Source of the DNA: a phage | Sequence record: OZ470597.1 | Reading direction: 5' to 3' (one strand) | Length of the DNA: 52,133 nt | Part shown: in pieces, positions 2-52,085 of the stretch | Numbering within the stretch: position 1 is the stretch's first letter | How the letters are laid out: each line of letters begins with the position of its first letter | Position numbers and translations under genes: made by a program | Notes under the pieces: model-generated | What the model was told of the DNA's origin: nothing | The model's database searches: none | What the model saw: the letters and a program-made list of their open reading frames with translations, nothing else

Positions 2-523
2 ATGGCTAAAAACGTTGAGCCAGCAGTAAAGGCTTGCAATTTTAAAAAGCTATACAATAAGCAATATGGCGATATTGCAAAAATGACAAAGGCGCACAAG
101 TACACGCCGGAACAGGTGTTTGATCTGGCTGTACGTTACTTTACGTGGGCCGAGGAAAACCATATACAGGCTGCGGAAACTGCATCCTTTCAGGGTAATG
201 TATACGAAAGCAAGATTCACAAGCCGCGCGTGTTCACCTTAAATGGATTCCGCTTATTCGCTGGCCTTTCTGCTTCCGTGCTTGAAAAATGGCGACGCGA
301 GCCAGGATTCAGCGATGTTATGGACTTTATCGACGGAGTTGTTTACGAGCAAAAATTCCAGCTTGCTGCAAACAATATTGTTAACGCTGGATTCATTGGT
401 AAAGAGATCGGCATTGAAAAGCCAGCCACCGTTACCATTGAGAATAACACAAGCGCCAGCGTTGACGCTGTAACGGCGGAGGAAGTCAAAGAGGCGGTAA
501 TTGACATTCTGGAGAAGATATAA
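2..523 (+). CDS. terminase small subunit (putative)
   Basis: ATG at 2; 173 aa ORF whose stop overlaps the start of the large terminase (TAATG at 521-525); assigned by position only. Confidence 0.5.
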   Translation: MAKNVEPAVKACNFKKLYNKQYGDIAKMTKAHKYTPEQVFDLAVRYFTWAEENHIQAAETASFQGNVYESKIHKPRVFTLNGFRLFAGLSASVLEKWRREPGFSDVMDFIDGVVYEQKFQLAANNIVNAGFIGKEIGIEKPATVTIENNTSASVDAVTAEEVKEAVIDILEKI

Positions 524-6336: not shown

Positions 6337-6364
6337 TTGCACGTTTAACAAAAAATGCTATCAT
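6337..6364 (+). promoter_or_regulatory. sigma70-like promoter upstream of major capsid gene (TTGCAC-16-TATCAT), overlapping a reversed copy of the conserved element
   Basis: -35 at 6337-6342, -10 at 6359-6364; conserved element gtttaacaaaaaatgctat at 6343-6361. Confidence 0.4.
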
Positions 6365-10101: not shown

Positions 10102-10121
10102 CTTTTAACAAAAAGTGCTAT
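10102..10121 (+). promoter_or_regulatory. conserved element copy (reverse orientation) upstream of tail chaperone gene
   Basis: cttttaacaaaaagtgctat between terminator 10041-10063 and RBS of gene 10135. Confidence 0.35.
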
Positions 10122-20714: not shown

Positions 20715-20745
20715 CTTGGTATCTCCTTCGTTGTTGTTGGTTGCA

Positions 20746-20788
20746 ACTATACACGATCTTACAGCATGCGTTTAGCAAAAAGTGCTAT
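20746..20788 (-). promoter_or_regulatory. conserved-element promoter (ATAGCACTTTTTGCTAAAC + extended -10 TGTATAGT) for Cor-like lipoprotein gene
   Basis: element 20769-20788 on minus strand, -10 at 20746-20751. Confidence 0.5.
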
Positions 20789-20859
20789 TATGTTCTTTTT
20801 GTTCTCGCGTGTTCTCAAATCTGCGGAGTCTTAAATTTAGCTCAAAAAGTGAACAATAA

Positions 20860-21030
20860 TAGAGCACAATACATACAGATAAATATATATACATACATAT
20901 AAATCAATAAGTTAGTAGTATATATATTTATATTCGTTCTTTATTGTTATCTATGTTCTGTGTGATTTTGCGTGTCCGGTGATTTTTATTGTGATTATGC
21001 ATGTGTCAGTGGTTATGTGTGTCTATATAT
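20860..21030. repeat. AT-rich / GT-rich iteron-like noncoding region
   Basis: ATACATACA repeats (20870-20899) and GTGATT(T/A)T repeats at 20962, 20979, 20991 plus GGTTATGTGTG at 21011-21021. Confidence 0.5.
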
Positions 21031-21159
21031 CTATATCCGGCGCAAGTTGAGGAACAAGAGAACAAAAAGACAACAAAGATATTTATCAATCACTTACATG
21101 TAAGTTTTGTTATCTAAGTTGGTTATAACGTTGTTAGAACAGAAAAAACAAAATAACTA

Positions 21160-21187
21160 TTGACTAAACGCATCAAATAGCTACAAT
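21160..21187 (+). promoter_or_regulatory. sigma70-like promoter of recombination module (TTGACT-16-TACAAT)
   Basis: -35 TTGACT 21160-21165, 16-nt spacer, -10 TACAAT 21182-21187, about 30 nt upstream of exonuclease ATG. Confidence 0.5.
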
Positions 21188-21216
21188 GCAGACATACCAA
21201 CCAATGAGGGTAAATC

Positions 21217-22278
21217 ATGAATAAGTTTATGGCGTACACCAGCGAAGAAATGAGCAATGAGCTTTATCACGATCCAGAAGCGTGGACGGCTGATTATGTT
21301 AGTGGATCAAGCCTTGCAGAGATTTACAGCACATGCCCGGCGGCGTGGAAGTTCAAGCCGCGTGAAGATAAGAGCAAGGCGCTAGTTTTCGGTACGCAGT
21401 CGCATACCAACTTTGAAAGCAAGGAGCTTTTCGAAAAAACATATCGCCGTGCGCCAGCGCCAGAAGACTTTAAGGATCTGATAACTAGCCAAACGGCGCT
21501 TGCTGCAAAACTGAAATCATTTGGCCTGAAAGGTACAACCGGAAAGACTTATCCAGACCTTATCAAAATGATGGTGGATTGCGGAGAAGACCTTAACGTT
21601 ATGTGGTTGATTGAGATGATCGCAGAAAGCCAGGCCAGGGCTGACGGCGTACAGCTAATCGAATCTAAAGATTACGATGCGTGCGTTGCAATGCGCCAGG
21701 TTCTGGAATCAATACCGGAACATAACGCATGTATGAATAGCAAGACGGCACAACGTGAATTATCGTTGTTCGGTGAAATTAACGGCGTAAAAGTCAAAGT
21801 GCGATGCGATCACGTTGACGTAACAAAGAACGTCACCGCAACGCTGATTGATGGTTACGATGAAAAAGGTCAGCCGATTTGCCGAGATATTATTTATCCA
21901 GAGGCCATTGTGATCACAGACTACAAAACTACAATGAGCGCGAATCCGGCTGAGTTTATGCGCCTGGCTTACAATCACGGCTATTATTTGAAAATGGCGT
22001 TGCAATGTGATTTATTCAGAAAAGCGTATCCAGAAGAAAAGCGACCTATAGTTGTGCGACTGTTAGCGCAAGAGAAGAAAGAGCCTTATTTGCCGTTGGC
22101 TTTCCGCATGAATAGCGAGCAATTGAAGATCGGGCGCATTCAGTACATGAGCGTAATTAACCAGTTTGCCATGTGCCAGCAACATGACGTTTGGCCTTCG
22201 TATTCAAACGGTGAGCCTGAGGTTTGCCTTGATACTCCTGATTGGGTGCGCCGCCAGTTTAAGCAATATCTTATTTAA
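21217..22278 (+). CDS. recombination exonuclease (PD-(D/E)XK family)
   Basis: 353 aa; RCDHVD and ITDYKTT motifs consistent with PD-(D/E)XK nuclease; sigma70-like promoter TTGACT-16-TACAAT upstream; precedes ERF and SSB. Confidence 0.6.
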   Translation: MNKFMAYTSEEMSNELYHDPEAWTADYVSGSSLAEIYSTCPAAWKFKPREDKSKALVFGTQSHTNFESKELFEKTYRRAPAPEDFKDLITSQTALAAKLKSFGLKGTTGKTYPDLIKMMVDCGEDLNVMWLIEMIAESQARADGVQLIESKDYDACVAMRQVLESIPEHNACMNSKTAQRELSLFGEINGVKVKVRCDHVDVTKNVTATLIDGYDEKGQPICRDIIYPEAIVITDYKTTMSANPAEFMRLAYNHGYYLKMALQCDLFRKAYPEEKRPIVVRLLAQEKKEPYLPLAFRMNSEQLKIGRIQYMSVINQFAMCQQHDVWPSYSNGEPEVCLDTPDWVRRQFKQYLI

Positions 22279-28075: not shown

Positions 28076-29008
28076 TTAGAGAAGAGATTCAGGTTTGTAA
28101 ACCTTCCTCTCTATCCCTTGCCTGTAATTATCATTAATCGGCATCATAATTTCAAGACCTCTTTCCTCTGCGGCAATGATAGCGTCACGATCTGTGCTCT
28201 TACAGACAACTCGCATTCTTCTGTTGCCTTTATACCTGTAAGCCACAATCTCAATGTTAGTTGCATCAAAACAGGCCCAAACCTCTTGACCAGTTGCAAG
28301 GTGAATATGTTGCGCATCAATCCAGTCAACGCAAAGATAGATTGTCTTATCTGTGCTTCCGGTTCTAACAATCGACCCTCGCGTGTAGTCCTTTGCGATA
28401 AAAGACTGTTTACCCTCCTCATCAATGAAAAGCACATTGCACATTTCATCATCAATATCATCTGAGTGTACCAGGTGACAAGGTAGCGCGTGAATGTATC
28501 TACCATCTTTTACGCCGCAATCATAATGACCATCTTCAGGCGGGTATATTCCTTCATATGTGCTTAACGGCGTGCGATCAAATTTTAGTGTTTTTGACAT
28601 AACGCGCTCGCAGCATTCATGGCTTGCCTGTTTCCCAAACGAATAACCAGAATCACGAGATACTCGCTTATTTGCCTTGATCCTATAGTCCTGCGGAACT
28701 TTTCCAAGAAAACGGCCCAAAATATTGATCACTTCGCTGTAAGGTTCTCCGGTTAGCTTCATGATCCAACCAATTCCGGTGTCATTACCGCACACGTTGC
28801 AGATCGCACCGCCATCGCCTTTTTTATCGCCAAGTTTATCCGTCCATCTGAAGCGATCCTTTCCGCCGCAGTGTGGGCAAGATTGATGCTTGCCGTTAAA
28901 AACTTCATTTGGAAGACCGCAAATACTTTGTAGCGCCTCACGCCATAGTCCCTGCATATATGGGAGAACATCTTCCTTTTGATAAACCATAAAGTTTTCG
29001 TTGTTCAT
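28076..29008 (-). CDS. DNA primase (CHC2 zinc-finger type)
   Basis: ATG 29008 with GAGG RBS; zinc-binding CPHCGGKDRFRW...CNVCGN motif. Confidence 0.7.
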   Translation of the reverse strand: MNNENFMVYQKEDVLPYMQGLWREALQSICGLPNEVFNGKHQSCPHCGGKDRFRWTDKLGDKKGDGGAICNVCGNDTGIGWIMKLTGEPYSEVINILGRFLGKVPQDYRIKANKRVSRDSGYSFGKQASHECCERVMSKTLKFDRTPLSTYEGIYPPEDGHYDCGVKDGRYIHALPCHLVHSDDIDDEMCNVLFIDEEGKQSFIAKDYTRGSIVRTGSTDKTIYLCVDWIDAQHIHLATGQEVWACFDATNIEIVAYRYKGNRRMRVVCKSTDRDAIIAAEERGLEIMMPINDNYRQGIERKVYKPESLL

Positions 29009-29062: not shown

Positions 29063-29536
29063 TTAGCAATTAGTGCTTTCAGGTTTATACAGGAATCCGC
29101 CAGGTTCATAATCTGACATTCTTACCACTCGCAACATTTCACGCTTATCACATCTCTTTGTGAGCGGTTTGCCATTGGAATCAAATCGCAGATCTGGACG
29201 GCAGAATGAAGCTCGATAGCCTTGACAGCCATACTTTTTGTAATCGTTATGCACCTTTTGAGCGCCAGCGGCTGAAATCATACCGCGAACACGCCACTGA
29301 TTTACGGTTTGCTGGCTAACGTTAAGACGTTTTGCCATTGCTGACACGCTTCCGTAATACTCAATAAGGATGTCAAGTCGCGCTTTTAGTCCGGCGCGCA
29401 CTTCATCTTTTAAAACATAGTATCCTGTAGGGCGCTTGCGCTTTTTCTTATCTTTACCCCGTCGAGTTCCGTTATTGCCATTAATTGTGCGCTTGTCAAT
29501 CTTGCCTGTTGATACTGCGATTCGCTGTTCTTTCAT
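29063..29536 (-). CDS. HTH-domain DNA-binding protein (putative transcriptional regulator)
   Basis: 157 aa; basic N-terminus and helix-turn-helix SVSAMAKRLNVSQQTVNQW; divergent from helicase gene. Confidence 0.55.
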   Translation of the reverse strand: MKEQRIAVSTGKIDKRTINGNNGTRRGKDKKKRKRPTGYYVLKDEVRAGLKARLDILIEYYGSVSAMAKRLNVSQQTVNQWRVRGMISAAGAQKVHNDYKKYGCQGYRASFCRPDLRFDSNGKPLTKRCDKREMLRVVRMSDYEPGGFLYKPESTNC

Positions 29537-29625: not shown

Positions 29626-31665
29626 ATGATTCCAAACATTGAAAAGCAAATATCAGCACTTGGTGAAGCGGTAATTAAATCCATTCAGGAGCGTTTCACT
29701 GTTGGCGAGATTGTGCCTTACCCTTACCAGTGCGTTGCATACGCTGAGATCGCAAAGCGTATGAAAAATTATGAGCATCCATTCTTTGTTAAAGCGTCCG
29801 TATCGGCTGGCAAAACATTGATGTTTGCAATGGTTGCTCACCAGTGCCGGAAAATGGGCTTAAAAATGATGGTTCTTGCTCGCCAAGCTGAGATTGTGGA
29901 TCAAGATTCTGAAGAGATAACAAATCTTGGCGTGCCGAACTCAATCTATTGCGCAGGGCTGAAGACAAAGAGCGCATACTTTCCGATCGTTGTTGGTTCT
30001 GAGGGAACTGTAGTTAATGGACTCTTTAAAGCGCTTAGCGACTATGTTCCTCACGTTATCGGGATTGACGAGTGTCACCAGGTGGATTGGGAAGACCTTG
30101 CCGACGCAATAGAGAAAGACGAGTCATTTTTACAAATGACGACAAAGAAAGGCGAAAAAGTACCAAATCCAGATTATGACGTAGCGAGCGATAACGAATG
30201 CGAAGAGTTCCTGATTGGTGAGGATGGCTTGCCAATGGAGGGAACAGGCCGCACACAATACACTGTCATTATTATGGAAATGATGCGCCGTTGCCGGAAA
30301 ACATATGGTCATGAACTACGCATATTTGGCATGACTGGATCAGAGTTTCGCGGTGTAGTCCCAATACTGGTAGAAGATAAAAAGCAAAAAGGATTCTGGC
30401 GTGAGCAGGTTACTAATATTGACACCAACTACCTGATCAAGTTCGGATCTGTTGTTCCGACTAATTTTGGCGACGTTGGCGATCTCGGGTATGACCTTTC
30501 AGAGTTTGAGGCATCAAGCGAGGATGGCGTTGCAGACTTTGACGCTAAAACGCTTCGCAGGATGGAACAAAAAATTCATGAAGAAGCGACCATGACAAAG
30601 CGCATCATGGCGAAAGTGCACGAGATATGTAAAAACCGTAACGGCGTACTTGTGACATGTGCAGGCGAAAGGCACTGTAAAGAGGCAGCGGCAGCATTGC
30701 CACCTGGAACGACTTACAGGATCATTACTGGTAAGACTGGCGATAACCAGCGCAAGGAGTGGTTGAAGGAGGCATACGAAGGGAAGGTAAAATACATCTT
30801 CCAGGTTCAGGCGCTAACAACTGGCGTTAACGTGCCTTTTTGGGATACGTCGGTTATATTGCGCAAGATTGGATCTCTTACGTTGCTGATTCAGCTTTTA
30901 GGGCGCGGAATGCGACTACTTAAGAAGTGGCATAAGGAGCAAGGATTCCAGAAAGATGATCATCTCGTCATGGATTTTTCAGGAACGATGGACGAGTTAG
31001 GGGAACTTTATTTTGATCCGATACTTGAACAGGCGCAACACAAGAAGCGATTCAGGAACGGTAAAGATCCGAAGCCTTGTCCTATTTGTGGAACTCTTAA
31101 CAGCTATTATGCTCGTCGTTGTATGCACGTAGACGAAAACGACAACAGATGCGAGTGGTTCTTTAAATTCAGGACATGTGATGATCAGATTGACCCGCGC
31201 ACTAAAAAGATTATTCATCGCGGTTGCGGCACGAAGAATGATATTGCGGCCAGGGTATGCAGACATTGCGACATGTCATTAATTGACCCTAACGAGAAGT
31301 TAAGCGGAAAGCACTACACAAAAAACGACTGGTTCAAGGTGCAATCTTTCTCGGTTGACATGACGAAAAACCAGAAAGGGATAATATTTAATTATGAGCT
31401 TTCCGATGGCATAGACACTTTCAGGGCGAGAGAGATATTTTTCCCTGAATCTGAAAGCCAAATTTGCCGCGCAAAATGGCGAAGCGTTGCCCTTAAGCAC
31501 ATACCAGATCGCCGCATCGCTGGTATGGTGGCGAGCTATCGCAATGCGCGTAAAATCATGCAATATGTGAATCACATCATGCCGCCATCGCGCGTGACTC
31601 ACCGCAAGACTAGCAAGGGCGAAGATAATTTGTACAAAAAGGAATTTAATTATGGCAATGACTGA
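29626..31665 (+). CDS. SF2 DEAD/DEAH-box ATP-dependent helicase
   Basis: Walker A SAGKT and DECH box; start set at ATG 29626, downstream of the conserved promoter at 29550-29592. Confidence 0.8.
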   Translation: MIPNIEKQISALGEAVIKSIQERFTVGEIVPYPYQCVAYAEIAKRMKNYEHPFFVKASVSAGKTLMFAMVAHQCRKMGLKMMVLARQAEIVDQDSEEITNLGVPNSIYCAGLKTKSAYFPIVVGSEGTVVNGLFKALSDYVPHVIGIDECHQVDWEDLADAIEKDESFLQMTTKKGEKVPNPDYDVASDNECEEFLIGEDGLPMEGTGRTQYTVIIMEMMRRCRKTYGHELRIFGMTGSEFRGVVPILVEDKKQKGFWREQVTNIDTNYLIKFGSVVPTNFGDVGDLGYDLSEFEASSEDGVADFDAKTLRRMEQKIHEEATMTKRIMAKVHEICKNRNGVLVTCAGERHCKEAAAALPPGTTYRIITGKTGDNQRKEWLKEAYEGKVKYIFQVQALTTGVNVPFWDTSVILRKIGSLTLLIQLLGRGMRLLKKWHKEQGFQKDDHLVMDFSGTMDELGELYFDPILEQAQHKKRFRNGKDPKPCPICGTLNSYYARRCMHVDENDNRCEWFFKFRTCDDQIDPRTKKIIHRGCGTKNDIAARVCRHCDMSLIDPNEKLSGKHYTKNDWFKVQSFSVDMTKNQKGIIFNYELSDGIDTFRAREIFFPESESQICRAKWRSVALKHIPDRRIAGMVASYRNARKIMQYVNHIMPPSRVTHRKTSKGEDNLYKKEFNYGND

Positions 31666-32071
31666 TAAAGGCGATTATCTGGAGTTTTACGAAAGAGATC
31701 CGACAGATACGCTAAAAGAGGAATCGCACCAGATCGGGGCGTTTCAATGGTTGACTTATGCTCATCCTGAATTACTGGCATGGCATACGAAAAACGAGGG
31801 CGACAAGGGGATCGCCACCGCAATGATGGATCAGCAAGCTGGGCTTGTTAAGGGCGTAAGTGATTTTATCATCCTGATTGGATTAAAAGGTCGTTACCCG
31901 TTCGCGGCAATTGAGATGAAGCGCGTCAATAAGTCCGGCAAGGGTAAGGCTTCACCAGTCAGCAAGGACCAAAAAGCCTTCTTGCGTCGTGTGCGTGAGC
32001 TTGGCGGATTCGCTGCCGTAACATACGGATATAAGCAATTCATGATCGCTGTAGAATACATGATGAAATAG
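31652..32071 (+). CDS. VRR-NUC domain nuclease
   Basis: 139 aa; PD-(D/E)XK-type SDFIILI...AAIEMKR motif typical of VRR-NUC. Confidence 0.6.
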   Translation: MAMTDKGDYLEFYERDPTDTLKEESHQIGAFQWLTYAHPELLAWHTKNEGDKGIATAMMDQQAGLVKGVSDFIILIGLKGRYPFAAIEMKRVNKSGKGKASPVSKDQKAFLRRVRELGGFAAVTYGYKQFMIAVEYMMK

Positions 32072-38447: not shown

Positions 38448-38945
38448 CTATTTCCCGTGGTTTTCATGGAATCCATAATCAATCAACAATCTATCTCTTT
38501 CTGATATAGCCGACTCCAAGCATGTGTGCCACCCGCCATAAATCAATCTACCATCAACCCTCACATTAACCTTGTATTTACCCCTATTTTCGTACCAGAT
38601 AATACCTATATGACCGCTTGTATTGTTAGACCGCATGGATAAATTTCGTCCGTTTATCGACCTTGTAACCAGCCTCAAGTTTTCTATCCTGTTATCAGTT
38701 CTGTCATGGTTTAAGTGATCAACCTCCATGTTTGGCGGAATATCTCCGTTATGCATAATCCAAACAACCCTGTGAGCATAAATCTGCACACCTTCTATAG
38801 TTAGCTTTACATACCCTTTGCTGTTTACGGTTCCAGCCTCAAGACTACGTTTTCTACCCTTTCTCCATTCCTTCCAGTAAAGAATCCCGTCGTCGTATCT
38901 TAGTTGACTTAGAAGTATTTCGCTTGAAATTTTGCAGTTGCACAT
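38448..38945 (-). CDS. HNH homing endonuclease
   Basis: 165 aa; MEVDHLNHDRTDNRIENLRL HNH motif, C-terminal DYGFHENHGK; GGAGG RBS; 5' end overlaps upstream gene by 37 nt. Confidence 0.8.
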   Translation of the reverse strand: MCNCKISSEILLSQLRYDDGILYWKEWRKGRKRSLEAGTVNSKGYVKLTIEGVQIYAHRVVWIMHNGDIPPNMEVDHLNHDRTDNRIENLRLVTRSINGRNLSMRSNNTSGHIGIIWYENRGKYKVNVRVDGRLIYGGWHTCLESAISERDRLLIDYGFHENHGK

Positions 38946-39292
38946 TCGAAACCCTCCTCGCAGCGATATAGAGTAAAACGATCACCTTGTTCGTCGTAAA
39001 CATACCCAGCAACAGCGCCAAGAACTCTACCACTTTCCACTTGATATCTCTTTCCTTTCTTGAAAGTTTTCTTAACGCTAAGAGAATGGTCAACGCAAGT
39101 GCAAAGTATTGTTTTTGTCTTGATATGACGATAGTCAGACTCAACAGCGTTTTGCCACTTGCTACCCTTTGTAATGCTCTTTACCTGGAATTGTTCCAAC
39201 TCGATCACATCATCGCTACCAGCAATTTTTTCGTATACAGCTTTATAACGACCGTTCATCAAAACGTTGGTTTTATTGCAGATAACTTTCAT
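38909..39292 (-). CDS. hypothetical protein
   Basis: 127 aa, AAGGAG RBS, conserved promoter element upstream. Confidence 0.5.
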   Translation of the reverse strand: MKVICNKTNVLMNGRYKAVYEKIAGSDDVIELEQFQVKSITKGSKWQNAVESDYRHIKTKTILCTCVDHSLSVKKTFKKGKRYQVESGRVLGAVAGYVYDEQGDRFTLYRCEEGFECATAKFQAKYF

Positions 39293-41359: not shown

Positions 41360-41641
41360 CTAATTAATGCCAACAACGTTAAAACTTACAGCTTTTGTTG
41401 CGCTAAACACATACGCTTCAACAGCCTCACCAAATACACGAATTTTTCCATAGCCGTACTGCGCATTCATATTGCGCCAAACCGTCCTGTTAGAGCAGAA
41501 CGCGCTACCAGTCTTGATGAGATTATCCATCTCTTTTCTTATGTCATGATAATCAAGCCAGAATCTATAAGCGCGTTGTTTAATGAGTTTCGCCTTGATT
41601 GTTTCGGCTGAGTTTTTAAAATCGCTGTTTTTGTAGGCCAT
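41360..41641 (-). CDS. hypothetical protein
   Basis: 93 aa, GGAGG RBS, start overlaps upstream stop (TAATG). Confidence 0.5.
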   Translation of the reverse strand: MAYKNSDFKNSAETIKAKLIKQRAYRFWLDYHDIRKEMDNLIKTGSAFCSNRTVWRNMNAQYGYGKIRVFGEAVEAYVFSATKAVSFNVVGIN

Positions 41642-41835
41642 TACACAACCTCCATAAAAGTATTGAATCCACGCAGTTTGAAAGCGTTGCCATGTTTAAC
41701 AACGTTCCATGTCAGGCCGGAGTGATACGCAACCATATCATCAAGATCAATGGTGATGATAGCGCCTTTCTTAAAGATTCCTTTCTCGTGAGTGGTGTCA
41801 CGCTGTGCAACTTTAACATCAACCTGTGTTTCCAT
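41641..41835 (-). CDS. hypothetical protein
   Basis: 64 aa; conserved promoter element and conserved leader upstream. Confidence 0.5.
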   Translation of the reverse strand: METQVDVKVAQRDTTHEKGIFKKGAIITIDLDDMVAYHSGLTWNVVKHGNAFKLRGFNTFMEVV

Positions 41836-42696: not shown

Positions 42697-42942
42697 TCAT
42701 TGTTGATCGTGTTTAACCGCACTCAGAACATCACATGATTCGTTAATAAATTTTGCCATGCGCTTATCATCACCAACAGGGATTAGCGCGTTAAACTCGC
42801 GTTTGCTACTGAATACCGTCACTTTATGAAACGATGCGAACGGCATCGACGGGAACTCGACTGTTTGCCTCAAGATCCGCAATCCCATCTTTTTGGCCCT
42901 TACCTGGGCCTCTGCAAGTTCAAAATCCACTTCATTAATCAT
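42697..42942 (-). CDS. hypothetical protein
   Basis: 81 aa, GAGGAG RBS. Confidence 0.5.
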   Translation of the reverse strand: MINEVDFELAEAQVRAKKMGLRILRQTVEFPSMPFASFHKVTVFSSKREFNALIPVGDDKRMAKFINESCDVLSAVKHDQQ

Positions 42943-43210
42943 TTCTTGATCTCCTCGGAAATAAACTTCAGGACTTTGCGCAAAAACACTTCGTTATTGA
43001 TGGTCGCTGGCAATTCCTCTTTCACCTCTTGCGGCAGGTAAACGTTGTTATGCCAGGTTAAGCAATCGTAGTTGATACGATAAGAGCAAAGCCACTCGCA
43101 ATCGTTATCTGCTTCCCAAATGCAGAGTTGCAGAACATCACCGAAATCCTCAACAGTCAGATCCAGACCGTGACGCTTTGCAAAGTTGAAAGTGGTTTTG
43201 CTGATGTTCA
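42939..43210 (-). CDS. hypothetical protein (first gene of leftward early arm)
   Basis: start at ATG 43210 with AGGAG RBS, downstream of conserved promoter 43249-43292. Confidence 0.5.
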
Positions 43211-43248
43211 TTGCTATCTCCTGATGGGTATCTCGTTTCGATGTGTGC

Positions 43249-43292
43249 ATTATGCCAAATCCAGTCAGGCACGTTTTAACAAAAAGTGCCAT
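43249..43292 (-). promoter_or_regulatory. conserved-element promoter for 42939..43210 gene
   Basis: minus-strand ATGGCACTTTTTGTTAAAAC (43273-43292), -10 CATAAT (43249-43254). Confidence 0.55.
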
Positions 43293-43611
43293 TTGCTGAC
43301 TGGTCATTATTCCATCTATTCCATTAATCAGGAATAACAGGAATAACTCATTCTCGATCACCTGGATTGTGAGACTTTGAGTTTGATCAATTTTAATCAG
43401 TTGATTAACTTTTTGTGTGGAGGGGATAGAGAAACGCGATCCTCTCGCATCCTTTCCGGCAATCCTGGTGAGCGCAACTGTTGTCTTCTGTTATCGCTGT
43501 TGTGCGTGTTATTCCGGCGTGGAATCGCATAACAAAAAATAACAAGAAAAATCCATATAACATACTAAAAAATAAGGATTATTTATTTATATGTATCTAT
43601 AAATTATTATC

Positions 43612-43690
43612 TGTTATGTGTGTTATGTGGTTATATTGATACCTGGTGTATTTTTGGTGGTTGTGTGTGGTTGTGTGTTGGTTGGTGTGT
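43612..43690. repeat. GT-rich tandem repeats in divergent early control region
   Basis: TGTTATGTG x2 (43612-43629) and GGTTGTGTG x2 (43659-43677); shares GGTTATGTG-type motif with 20860-21030. Confidence 0.5.
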
Positions 43691-43890
43691 ATATATGGGG
43701 TGTGGGGCGTATCCGCGCATTTTTAGATAACACGCAAAAACAACATTGATTTATAAGAAAAAAAAACGCGAATCTTGTTATGTTATGAAAAGATAACATC
43801 GGAAAACCGCCGGTAACAATAAAAAACAGTTGACACACCAGGTGGCGGTAAATGATGATGCAGTCACTGAGTCACGAGGAGGTATAAAGC

Positions 43891-44361
43891 ATGAGTGAAT
43901 CTGTATTTACAAATGAGCTTCGCAAGGTTGCGATTGCGCTCGCATCTGGATTGCACGAATCGATCCAGATACCTGAAAGATGGGTAAGGCAGCACCTGGA
44001 GGGTAAGAAGTCAGCCAGCAATGCTGGATCATATATCCGTCAGATTATGGGGCGCGTTCCAGAAGTGGCGGAGAAGGGGAGAGTTTCAGTCTCAAAGAAA
44101 CCTTACGGCCCTGATAGCGAATATTTCGGAGAAAATTACTTTGATGTGGCGATTGTTAGTGCGCCGAATCGCAGGGTGTACAACAAGGCCGCGCTTGAGA
44201 AGGCTGTAGCGAAAGCAAAACGCCAGGTTGCTGAGTCGATGCTTAAAGTCTCACCAAACCTAGCGAACTACTCGCCAGATGAATATGAAACACTTGCTAA
44301 GGCGATCGCAGACTTTCACGCGATCATTAAAGAAACATATCTTAACGATGAGGAACAATAA
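43891..44361 (+). CDS. hypothetical protein (first gene of rightward early arm)
   Basis: 156 aa, GAGGAGG RBS. Confidence 0.5.
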   Translation: MSESVFTNELRKVAIALASGLHESIQIPERWVRQHLEGKKSASNAGSYIRQIMGRVPEVAEKGRVSVSKKPYGPDSEYFGENYFDVAIVSAPNRRVYNKAALEKAVAKAKRQVAESMLKVSPNLANYSPDEYETLAKAIADFHAIIKETYLNDEEQ

Positions 44362-52060: not shown

Positions 52061-52085
52061 ACCCGCCAAATGGCGGGTTTTTTAT
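52061..52085 (+). terminator. intrinsic terminator at end of rightward early arm
   Basis: CCCGCC...GGCGGG hairpin followed by TTTTTT; TATAAT at 52101-52106 downstream. Confidence 0.65.

Follow-up and report, generated by a model that had tools for sequence, protein, structure and literature searches.

The non-coding gap between the early gene arms

The DNA analyzed here, sequence record OZ470597.1 (52,133 nucleotides; "the window" always means this whole stretch), carries a gene-free gap at 43212-43890 (679 bp) between its leftward and rightward early genes, and it is this gap, with its promoters, repeats, and putative packaging and replication elements, that concerns us in the following. Judged from its sequence, the window is a complete ~52.1-kb genome of a T1-like siphovirus (Drexlerviridae, Tempevirinae, Hanrivervirus), the nearest phages being vojen, egaa, damhaus, and pSf-1 with 92-96 % identity across the gap region. 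The record was opened at the gene of the small terminase subunit (terS; protein, TerS), as in the BASEL phage JakobBernoulli. The leftward arm (~36-43.2 kb) encompasses small genes, a DUF3987 helicase-like protein, and a Dcm methylase, and the rightward arm is made up of small genes and continues into terS. Gap length is well preserved (680-743 bp in nine aligned gaps), and the gap belongs to a known kind, namely the end region of T1-like genomes that bears the packaging start site (pac). New are its dissection into four parts, the recognition of a paralogous origin-like module elsewhere in the genome, and the interpretation of the promoter repeats as resembling the host marbox. The four parts appear to be, from left to right, a leftward promoter, a candidate pac segment, a central module, and a rightward promoter, with the following features:

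43249-43292, minus strand: leftward early promoter, consisting of the marbox-type element ATGGCACTTTTTGTTAAAA (43292 to 43274), a 19-nt spacer, and a CATAAT -10 hexamer (43254 to 43249)
43293-43480, plus strand: candidate pac segment, packaging rightward, proposed from relatives' record ends and from co-occurrence with TerS
43308-43347: palindromic repeat set TATTCC-N3-TATTCC ... GGAATA-N3-GGAATA (period 9, 2.1 copies)
43356, 43385, and 43438: GATC sites within the candidate pac segment
43393-43408: palindrome TTAATCA-gt-TGATTAA, with a perfect IHF-core match on the minus strand (43394-43406)
43415-43435: box GTGTGGAGGGGATAGAGAAAC within the candidate pac segment
~43481-43800: central module of repeated words, AT core, and GT tract
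43489, 43507, 43612, 43621, 43776, and 43781, plus strand: TGTTAT words
43334, 43529, 43539, 43557, 43727, and 43793, plus strand: ATAACA words
43529-43612: AT-rich core, a candidate DNA-unwinding or bending element
43612-43700, plus strand: GT-rich, strand-asymmetric tract that holds the TGTTATGTG and GGTTGTGTG repeats and ends in TATATATGGG (43690-43699)
43830-43859, plus strand: predicted rightward promoter PR, with -35 TTGACA (43830-43835), an 18-nt spacer, and -10 GATGAT (43854-43859)
43862-43893, plus strand: 5' untranslated region with AGTCAC-TG-AGTCAC (43862-43875), ribosome-binding site GAGGAGG (43876-43882), and the ATG at 43891

Taken together, we read the gap as a composite of two outward promoters, a pac segment, and one copy of a duplicated origin module, and give this composite a probability of roughly one in two.

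A first-pass annotation, made from the letters alone, had described the interval from 43362 onwards as a divergent control region with repeats, naming early promoters and operators, or an origin of replication, as candidate roles. The repeats and hexamers that it listed are all present where it placed them: TGTTATGTG twice (43612-43620 and 43621-43629; period 9 and 2.7 copies according to Tandem Repeats Finder, TRF), GGTTGTGTG twice inside a period-10 array (43657-43689; TRF, 3.3 copies), an AT-rich stretch that includes the most AT-rich 80 bp of the genome, TTGACA with GATGAT 18 nt downstream, and the AGTCAC direct repeat. Its interpretation is borne out in part. Of the two divergent early promoters, the rightward one is conserved across subfamilies, whereas the leftward one falls outside the region described, inside sequence that had been taken as coding. 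The two tandem pairs exist, but the actual repeat unit is a dispersed ATAACA/TGTTAT word with 12 copies. As to function, promoters are upheld and an origin is possible, but a packaging start had not been considered, and harboring the packaging start (pac) and the physical genome end is the best-documented role of this gap in the T1-like family.

The left boundary at 43362 was wrong: the first leftward gene (90 aa, matching vojen_4 and its homologues) starts at ATG 43211, so that the gap begins at 43212. A 140-aa open reading frame (ORF) with a GTG start (42939-43361) was dismissed as a read-through of this 90-aa gene, whose ATG is preceded by GGAG. That the interval holds no convincing ORF was correct, as its short ORFs are unconserved as frames; a long minus-strand frame is a mere reflection of the T-poor, CA-rich strand. 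JakobBernoulli gene bas07_0066 (L003 12445-12771), too, was rejected as a gene, since it overlies a conserved non-coding segment, and in the window its frame has no start codon upstream of GTG 43361. This 108-aa call and similar ones in other records, which cover the pac segment and the leftward promoter, are probably spurious, and the GTG-started 140-aa ORF of the window is an artefact of the same kind. A terminator-like hairpin at 43698-43718 was discarded, being unconserved in the gap alignment, and no structured RNA was matched in Rfam (E up to 1) within 43000-44100.

At the right end of the gap, the -35 hexamer of PR matches the consensus at all six positions, and TTGACA is invariant in the nine aligned gaps, T1 included. 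Its -10 hexamer matches at four of six positions at 18 nt, while relatives carry GATAAT or AATAAT (five of six) at 17-18 nt. Consensus and conservation suggest that PR is a near-consensus sigma-70 promoter for the first rightward gene, which encodes a DUF7174 protein of 156 aa (Pfam PF23796, E 4.5e-27). The AGTCAC repeat did not hold up as a conserved signal; it lies in the 5' untranslated region and is kept in vojen and haarsle only.

The candidate packaging segment

In T1, TLS, and Rtp, the untranslated region at the genome end that carries pac occupies the same site, between leftward and rightward arms of small early genes, and measures ~700-1000 bp. The layout is alike as well, with a leftward ATAGCAC-type promoter, lineage-specific repeats, an AT/TATATA core, and a TTGAC(A/G/T)-type promoter ~60 nt before the ATG. 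However, nucleotide alignment with the window is possible in patches only, the repeated words differ (GTTAAT in T1, GTGAAC and mixed words in TLS), and, unlike the window, the T1 and Rtp gaps contain a second leftward marbox element and no GT tract. In TLS, pac was mapped by restriction analysis (TLS paper), and for T1 and other T1-like phages it has been assigned to this untranslated region (SU57 paper). An exact pac sequence for T1, TLS, or Rtp is not defined in the accessible literature.

Within the gap of the window, 43293-43480 is the probable pac, with the cut near 43420-43428 and packaging proceeding rightward, an assignment made because of the mapped or recorded ends in relatives and the co-occurrence with TerS. 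The T1 record begins within the equivalent gap, its first rightward ATG following after 538 nt, and has a 2.8-kb terminal repeat annotated from position 1; for the TLS and Rtp records, the corresponding distances to the ATG are 588 and 545 nt. The records of two independently assembled Hanriverviruses, haarsle (43419|43420) and G29-2 (43427|43428), have breaks that lie 8 bp apart and both inside the conserved box GTGTG|GAGGGGAT|AGAG. In several more isolate genomes, the start lies 430-740 nt ahead of the first rightward gene. The segment is furthermore unique in the genome (blastn against the window returned the self match only) and has no counterpart in the second hub described below. It is 90-95 % identical in all five genomes whose measured TerS is at least 88 % identical to that of the window and unalignable in all seven with a TerS of 49-73 % identity. 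The central module, in contrast, does not follow TerS: in JakobBernoulli, the same TerS is combined with a different module, and in Warwickvirus, a module of 73 % identity goes with a different TerS. TerS itself is P22 gp3-like (Pfam GP3_package), and packaging is of the headful type. In the proposed scheme, terminase would recognize 43293-43480, make its first cut near the GGAGGGGAT box at ~43420-43428, and fill heads rightward towards the terminase genes.

Several points weigh against this assignment. Some of the record starts may go back to analogy with T1 and not to measurement, and across lineages they scatter over ~300 bp. Position 1 of T1 falls ~50 nt to the left of the box in which haarsle and G29-2 break, and the link between pac segment and TerS is a correlation that is confounded with genus membership. 

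As to the content of the segment, its repeat sets are lineage-specific, as seen by alignment and enrichment (GGAATA here, GTAATC four times in Warwickvirus, TAGACC four times in TLS), and clustering of GATC is modest (three in 83 bp versus one per 181 bp genome-wide). Chi sites are absent from the window.

Lambda cos comprises cosN and cosB with the IHF site I1, and P1 pac has sets of hexamers flanking the cut. The present arrangement resembles both in combining a putative cleavage point with repeated candidate protein-binding words, an IHF-type bend on the packaged side, and GATC near the cut. It differs in the headful packaging with a P22 gp3-like TerS and in that its repeat array is duplicated elsewhere, which is unexpected of a packaging signal. 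A sequence resemblance to cos or to P1 pac was not seen, although no search for one was made. If the assignment is correct, the location of pac, so far known only roughly, is confined to 188 bp, including a probable cut site.

The central module and its second copy

The central module stands out by its sequence anatomy, its enrichment in one word, its conservation, and its duplication within the genome. ATAACA/TGTTAT is the most enriched hexamer of the gap (12 copies at 43334-43798 versus 0.66 expected, Poisson p ~8e-12), which thereby holds 12 of the 62 copies in the genome. Adjacent words are often spaced by 9-10 bp, copies flank the AT core on both sides, and two of them form the inverted repeat TGTTAT-N6-ATAACA at 43781-43798. 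The words at 43529, 43539, 43612, 43727, and 43776 are retained in Warwickvirus (~71-73 % identity), those at 43529 and 43776 also in the JakobBernoulli type. In three other lineages (L020, L029, and L033), equivalent positions are taken by TAAACA, with one pair standing left of the core and another directly adjoining the -35 hexamer, while T1 uses GTTAAT and TLS-like phages GTGAAC or mixed NNAACA words. The shared unit is thus an AACA/TGTT core that has been homogenized to a single hexamer in some lineages; the idea of a specificity switch is weakened by the mixed NNAACA words of several lineages.

Between the words lies the most AT-rich 80-bp stretch genome-wide (43529-43608, 86 % AT). It overlaps the second least stable 60-bp duplex (43556-43615), and both 60- and 100-bp windows around 43536-43635 rank second in the genome. 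Its stretch TAAAAAATAAGGATTATTTATTTATATGTATCTATA is nearly identical in Hanrivervirus and Warwickvirus despite diverged flanks. The adjoining tract at 43612-43700 is composed of 33 G, 44 T, 10 A, and 2 C, and 43627-43706 is the top G+T window of 80 bp in the genome (88 % versus a mean of 50 %, standard deviation 7 %). In Tempevirinae, it is the composition of this tract and not its sequence that is kept, whereas the motif TATATATG is conserved family-wide in the gap alignment.

A second hub of the same build lies at 20.9 kb. It was recovered with an nhmmer profile built only from the 43.5-kb-type cores of 11 lineages, which gave no further significant match in the window or TLS genomes beyond those listed here:

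20715-21216, plus strand: paralogous hub, ordered and oriented as the 43.5-kb hub; ATG at 21217
20770-20788, minus strand: leftward marbox promoter of this hub
next in order: three TGTTCT words phased at ~10 bp, the AT core with AATCAATAAGTTA (IHF-core match), and a GT-rich tract
rightmost: AGAACA/GGAACA words, followed by the promoter TTGACT-N16-TACAAT
43502-43743 (E 8e-51) and 20867-21058 (E 4e-14): profile matches in the window
178-413 and, as the equivalent of the second copy, 28783-28989 (E 1e-18): profile matches in TLS

The core of the second hub is the least stable duplex window of the genome, followed by that of the 43.5-kb hub, and the GT tracts of both hubs are the top two G+T windows. 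Equivalent second hubs occur in T1 (29851-30377), TLS, and Rtp. As a side note, the second hub of the window is located between a small leftward lipoprotein-like (cor-type) gene and a recE-like gene.

We infer that the central module is a replication origin, a reading that is plausible but unproven. An origin fits best because an easily melted core is combined with phased repeats, because two such copies exist between divergent promoters, and because primase and helicases are encoded by the genome (a polymerase is not). As in iteron origins, an AT-rich, easily unwound element is present, and clustered repeat words adjoin it. The module would accordingly be one of two origins per genome (at 43.5 and 20.9 kb), at which a protein binding the AACA-core words would act and the AT core would open, aided by negative supercoiling between the diverging transcription units. 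Two-copy origins are known from SPP1 (oriL/oriR) and P4 (ori/crr), and the SaPI origin combines iterons with an AT-rich segment. The likeness to these systems lies in short repeats on both sides of an easily melted AT-rich segment and, for SPP1 and P4, also in the two copies per genome. However, the words measure only 6 nt, share an AACA core, and are of mixed sequence within some lineages, and the module sits in a non-coding gap, neither inside nor beside an initiator gene. For the T1-like family, no replication origin is reported in the accessible literature.

Against an origin stands that no initiator matching the word specificity was found among the proteins screened for covariation, which covered 19 loci. 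DnaA boxes (TTWTNCACA) number three genome-wide (7.3 expected), with none in either hub. Moreover, T1 and Rtp lack the GT tract, and the words abut the rightward -35 hexamer, which would suit an operator equally well. Cumulative GC skew tracks gene orientation and is therefore uninformative on the origin.

Among the proteins considered as word binders, DUF7174 was rejected for its 25 % identity between the window and JakobBernoulli despite their shared word, TerS because its overall identity does not partition by word type, and the C-terminus of the DUF3987 helicase because it groups L033 with the TGTTAT phages. The N-terminus of the gp7-family (phrog_2684) was rejected likewise, as its types do not sort by word class. 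Within Tempevirinae, the first leftward protein agrees with the words, but it is absent from T1, TLS, and Rtp. A Cro/YdaS-like helix-turn-helix (HTH) regulator encoded next to the primase (29063-29536) has a recognition helix that differs between word classes, though not cleanly. Regarding the phrog_2684 protein of the window (38909-39292, minus strand; homologues T1 ST7, TLS gp73, and Rtp69), encoded just upstream of the DUF3987 helicase, we observed that its C-terminal ~70 aa are strongly conserved, while at least three unrelated N-terminal types are shuffled among lineages.

The main rival to an origin is a purely transcriptional hub, which we consider possible but on balance unlikely. In this scenario, the AACA words are operators for a phage regulator such as the Cro/YdaS-like HTH protein, which would switch the rightward promoters at 43830 and 21160, with the AT core bent by IHF, Fis, or H-NS to loop distant operators together. 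Words indeed adjoin or overlap the -35 hexamer (AAAACAG-TTGACA in the window, TAAACAaaaTAAACA-TTGACA in L033), the inverted repeat at 43781-43798 is operator-like and lies ~32-49 bp upstream of the -35, and the rightward promoters of both hubs are of the TTGAC(A/T) type and not marbox promoters. The recognition helix SQQxVNQW is common to both TGTTAT lineages and differs in L033, L020/L029, TLS, and T1, and three of the eight IHF-core matches of the genome fall within the two hubs. Most words, however, are 200-350 bp away from either promoter, the recognition helices of the two TGTTTA lineages are unrelated to each other, and several lineages mix their NNAACA words. Regulation alone also leaves the near-identical AT core, the extreme duplex instability, and the strand-asymmetric GT tract unexplained.

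It has also to be asked whether the packaging signal extends over the entire array from 43293 to ~43800, in which case words and AT core would act as a platform on the packaged side that TerS binds and bends, as at lambda cosN-cosB with its IHF site or P1 pac with its hexamer sets. The ends mapping directly left of the array, on the side from which packaging proceeds, its phased short repeats and bendable AT-rich DNA, and the IHF-core match at 43394-43406 would all fit, and the Rtp paper is said, by a text that cites it, to have proposed ATATA repeats as the pac motif of T1. Yet a homologous module exists at 20.9 kb, a site without any mapped record end, TerS identities do not group according to word type, and the module assorts independently of TerS, while 43293-43480 follows it. 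Because of this duplication and independent assortment, we do not count the module as part of pac, and deem the larger signal improbable. Even less credence, indeed very little, is given to the notion that the repeats are functionless slippage products that accumulated in an AT-rich spacer between promoters. Several copies do stand in tandem with periods of 9-10 bp, and the GT tract shows little sequence conservation. Nevertheless, copies are dispersed and inverted across 460 bp, word positions are kept at ~71 % identity and across unalignable lineages, the AT core hardly varies, the length of the gap is maintained, and the paralogue could be found by profile search.

Although T1-like phages often contaminate laboratories and industrial processes and are isolated widely for therapeutic use, their cis-acting DNA is poorly defined. 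The present analysis names two paralogous 200-bp modules as origin candidates, and defined pac and origin elements would help in rebooting and engineering T1-like phages and in predicting their transduction.

Marbox-type promoters and further features of the genome

The leftward promoter of the gap serves the first leftward gene, is thus the first promoter of the leftward arm, and is conserved in all aligned lineages. It belongs to a genome-wide family, which was described in TLS as a 21-nt intergenic repeat, aaATAGCACnnnTTGnTAAAA, upstream of genes (TLS paper). In the window, ATAGCACNNNTTGNTAAAA occurs 21 times versus 3.2 expected, with copies in both early arms pointing in the direction of transcription. 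Each of them precedes a -10-like hexamer ~19 nt downstream, a ribosome-binding site, and an ATG.

The marsox/marbox consensus of E. coli reads AYnGCACnnWnnRYYAAAY (PMC3709825), and ATGGCACTTTTTGTTAAAA fits it (AYNGCACNNWNNRYYAAAY) at 18 of 19 positions with a single mismatch. At up to one mismatch, the window genome has 18 such sites versus 1.55 expected, and T1, TLS, and Rtp have 21, 21, and 16 marbox-type sites, respectively, nearly all with a -10 hexamer at a spacer of 19. Class II marboxes are in forward orientation, overlap the -35, and are centered between -36 and -55 (PMC12052159); the leftward box has the same orientation and overlap, with its center at ~ -42 relative to an assumed transcription start. 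The phage element thus resembles the class II promoters of the E. coli mar/sox/rob regulon in match, orientation, center, and -10 spacing, whereas host marboxes are much more degenerate. We infer that the T1-family promoter repeat ATAGCACTTTTTGTTAAAA(C), a known intergenic element, fits the marbox recognized by MarA, SoxS, and Rob, and that early and middle promoters may be activated by host Rob, MarA, or SoxS; alternatively, a phage-encoded factor could bind the marbox-like element instead. In the searchable literature, no paper was found that ties the promoter repeat to any of these three proteins.

One might go further and propose that the 43.5- and 20.9-kb modules are T1-like origins opened by divergent early transcription, with the leftward promoters of both hubs and most of the ~16 other marbox-type elements being class II marbox promoters driven by host Rob, MarA, or SoxS. 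We regard this extended scheme as decidedly unlikely as a whole; if true, the early program of the phage and the start of its replication would be coupled to a host stress regulon. The 19-nt elements are located as follows:

6343, 10103, 20770, 22279, 29550, 32068, 33088, 38204, 39349, 41892, 42398, 43274, 44618, 45082, 46069, 48588, and 49971, both strands: 19-nt marbox elements

The 19-nt spacers that follow the elements at 32068, 33088, 39349, 44618, and 48588 often contain inverted repeats, for example, CCAGGcgcaaaaCCTGG and GGCGCgaaggattGCGCC. Their sequence varies among copies, pairing is retained, and they overlap the -10 hexamer, so that they look like a hairpin under selection. Two elements (6343-6361 and 10103-10121, minus strand) are antisense within the plus-strand structural (late) block, each followed by a -10-like hexamer, and may yield antisense transcripts.

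Three further observations concern the genome and its relatives at large. Approximately 20 GenBank records of the MG0656xx series, labeled 'UNVERIFIED Campylobacter phage' (including MG065640 and MG065643, the latter being L008), are 88-94 % identical to the E. coli Hanrivervirus of the window, which makes host mis-assignment or contamination likely. In the leftward arm, a 64-aa protein (41641-41835, minus strand) matches Pfam PF25180, 'Phage antiviral trigger protein Gp54' (E 1e-36), and may trigger a host defense system. Just upstream of terS, finally, a hairpin followed by a T-run, CCCGCCAAATGGCGGGTTTTTT (52062-52085), is terminator-like and delimits the rightward early arm from the packaging genes that follow.

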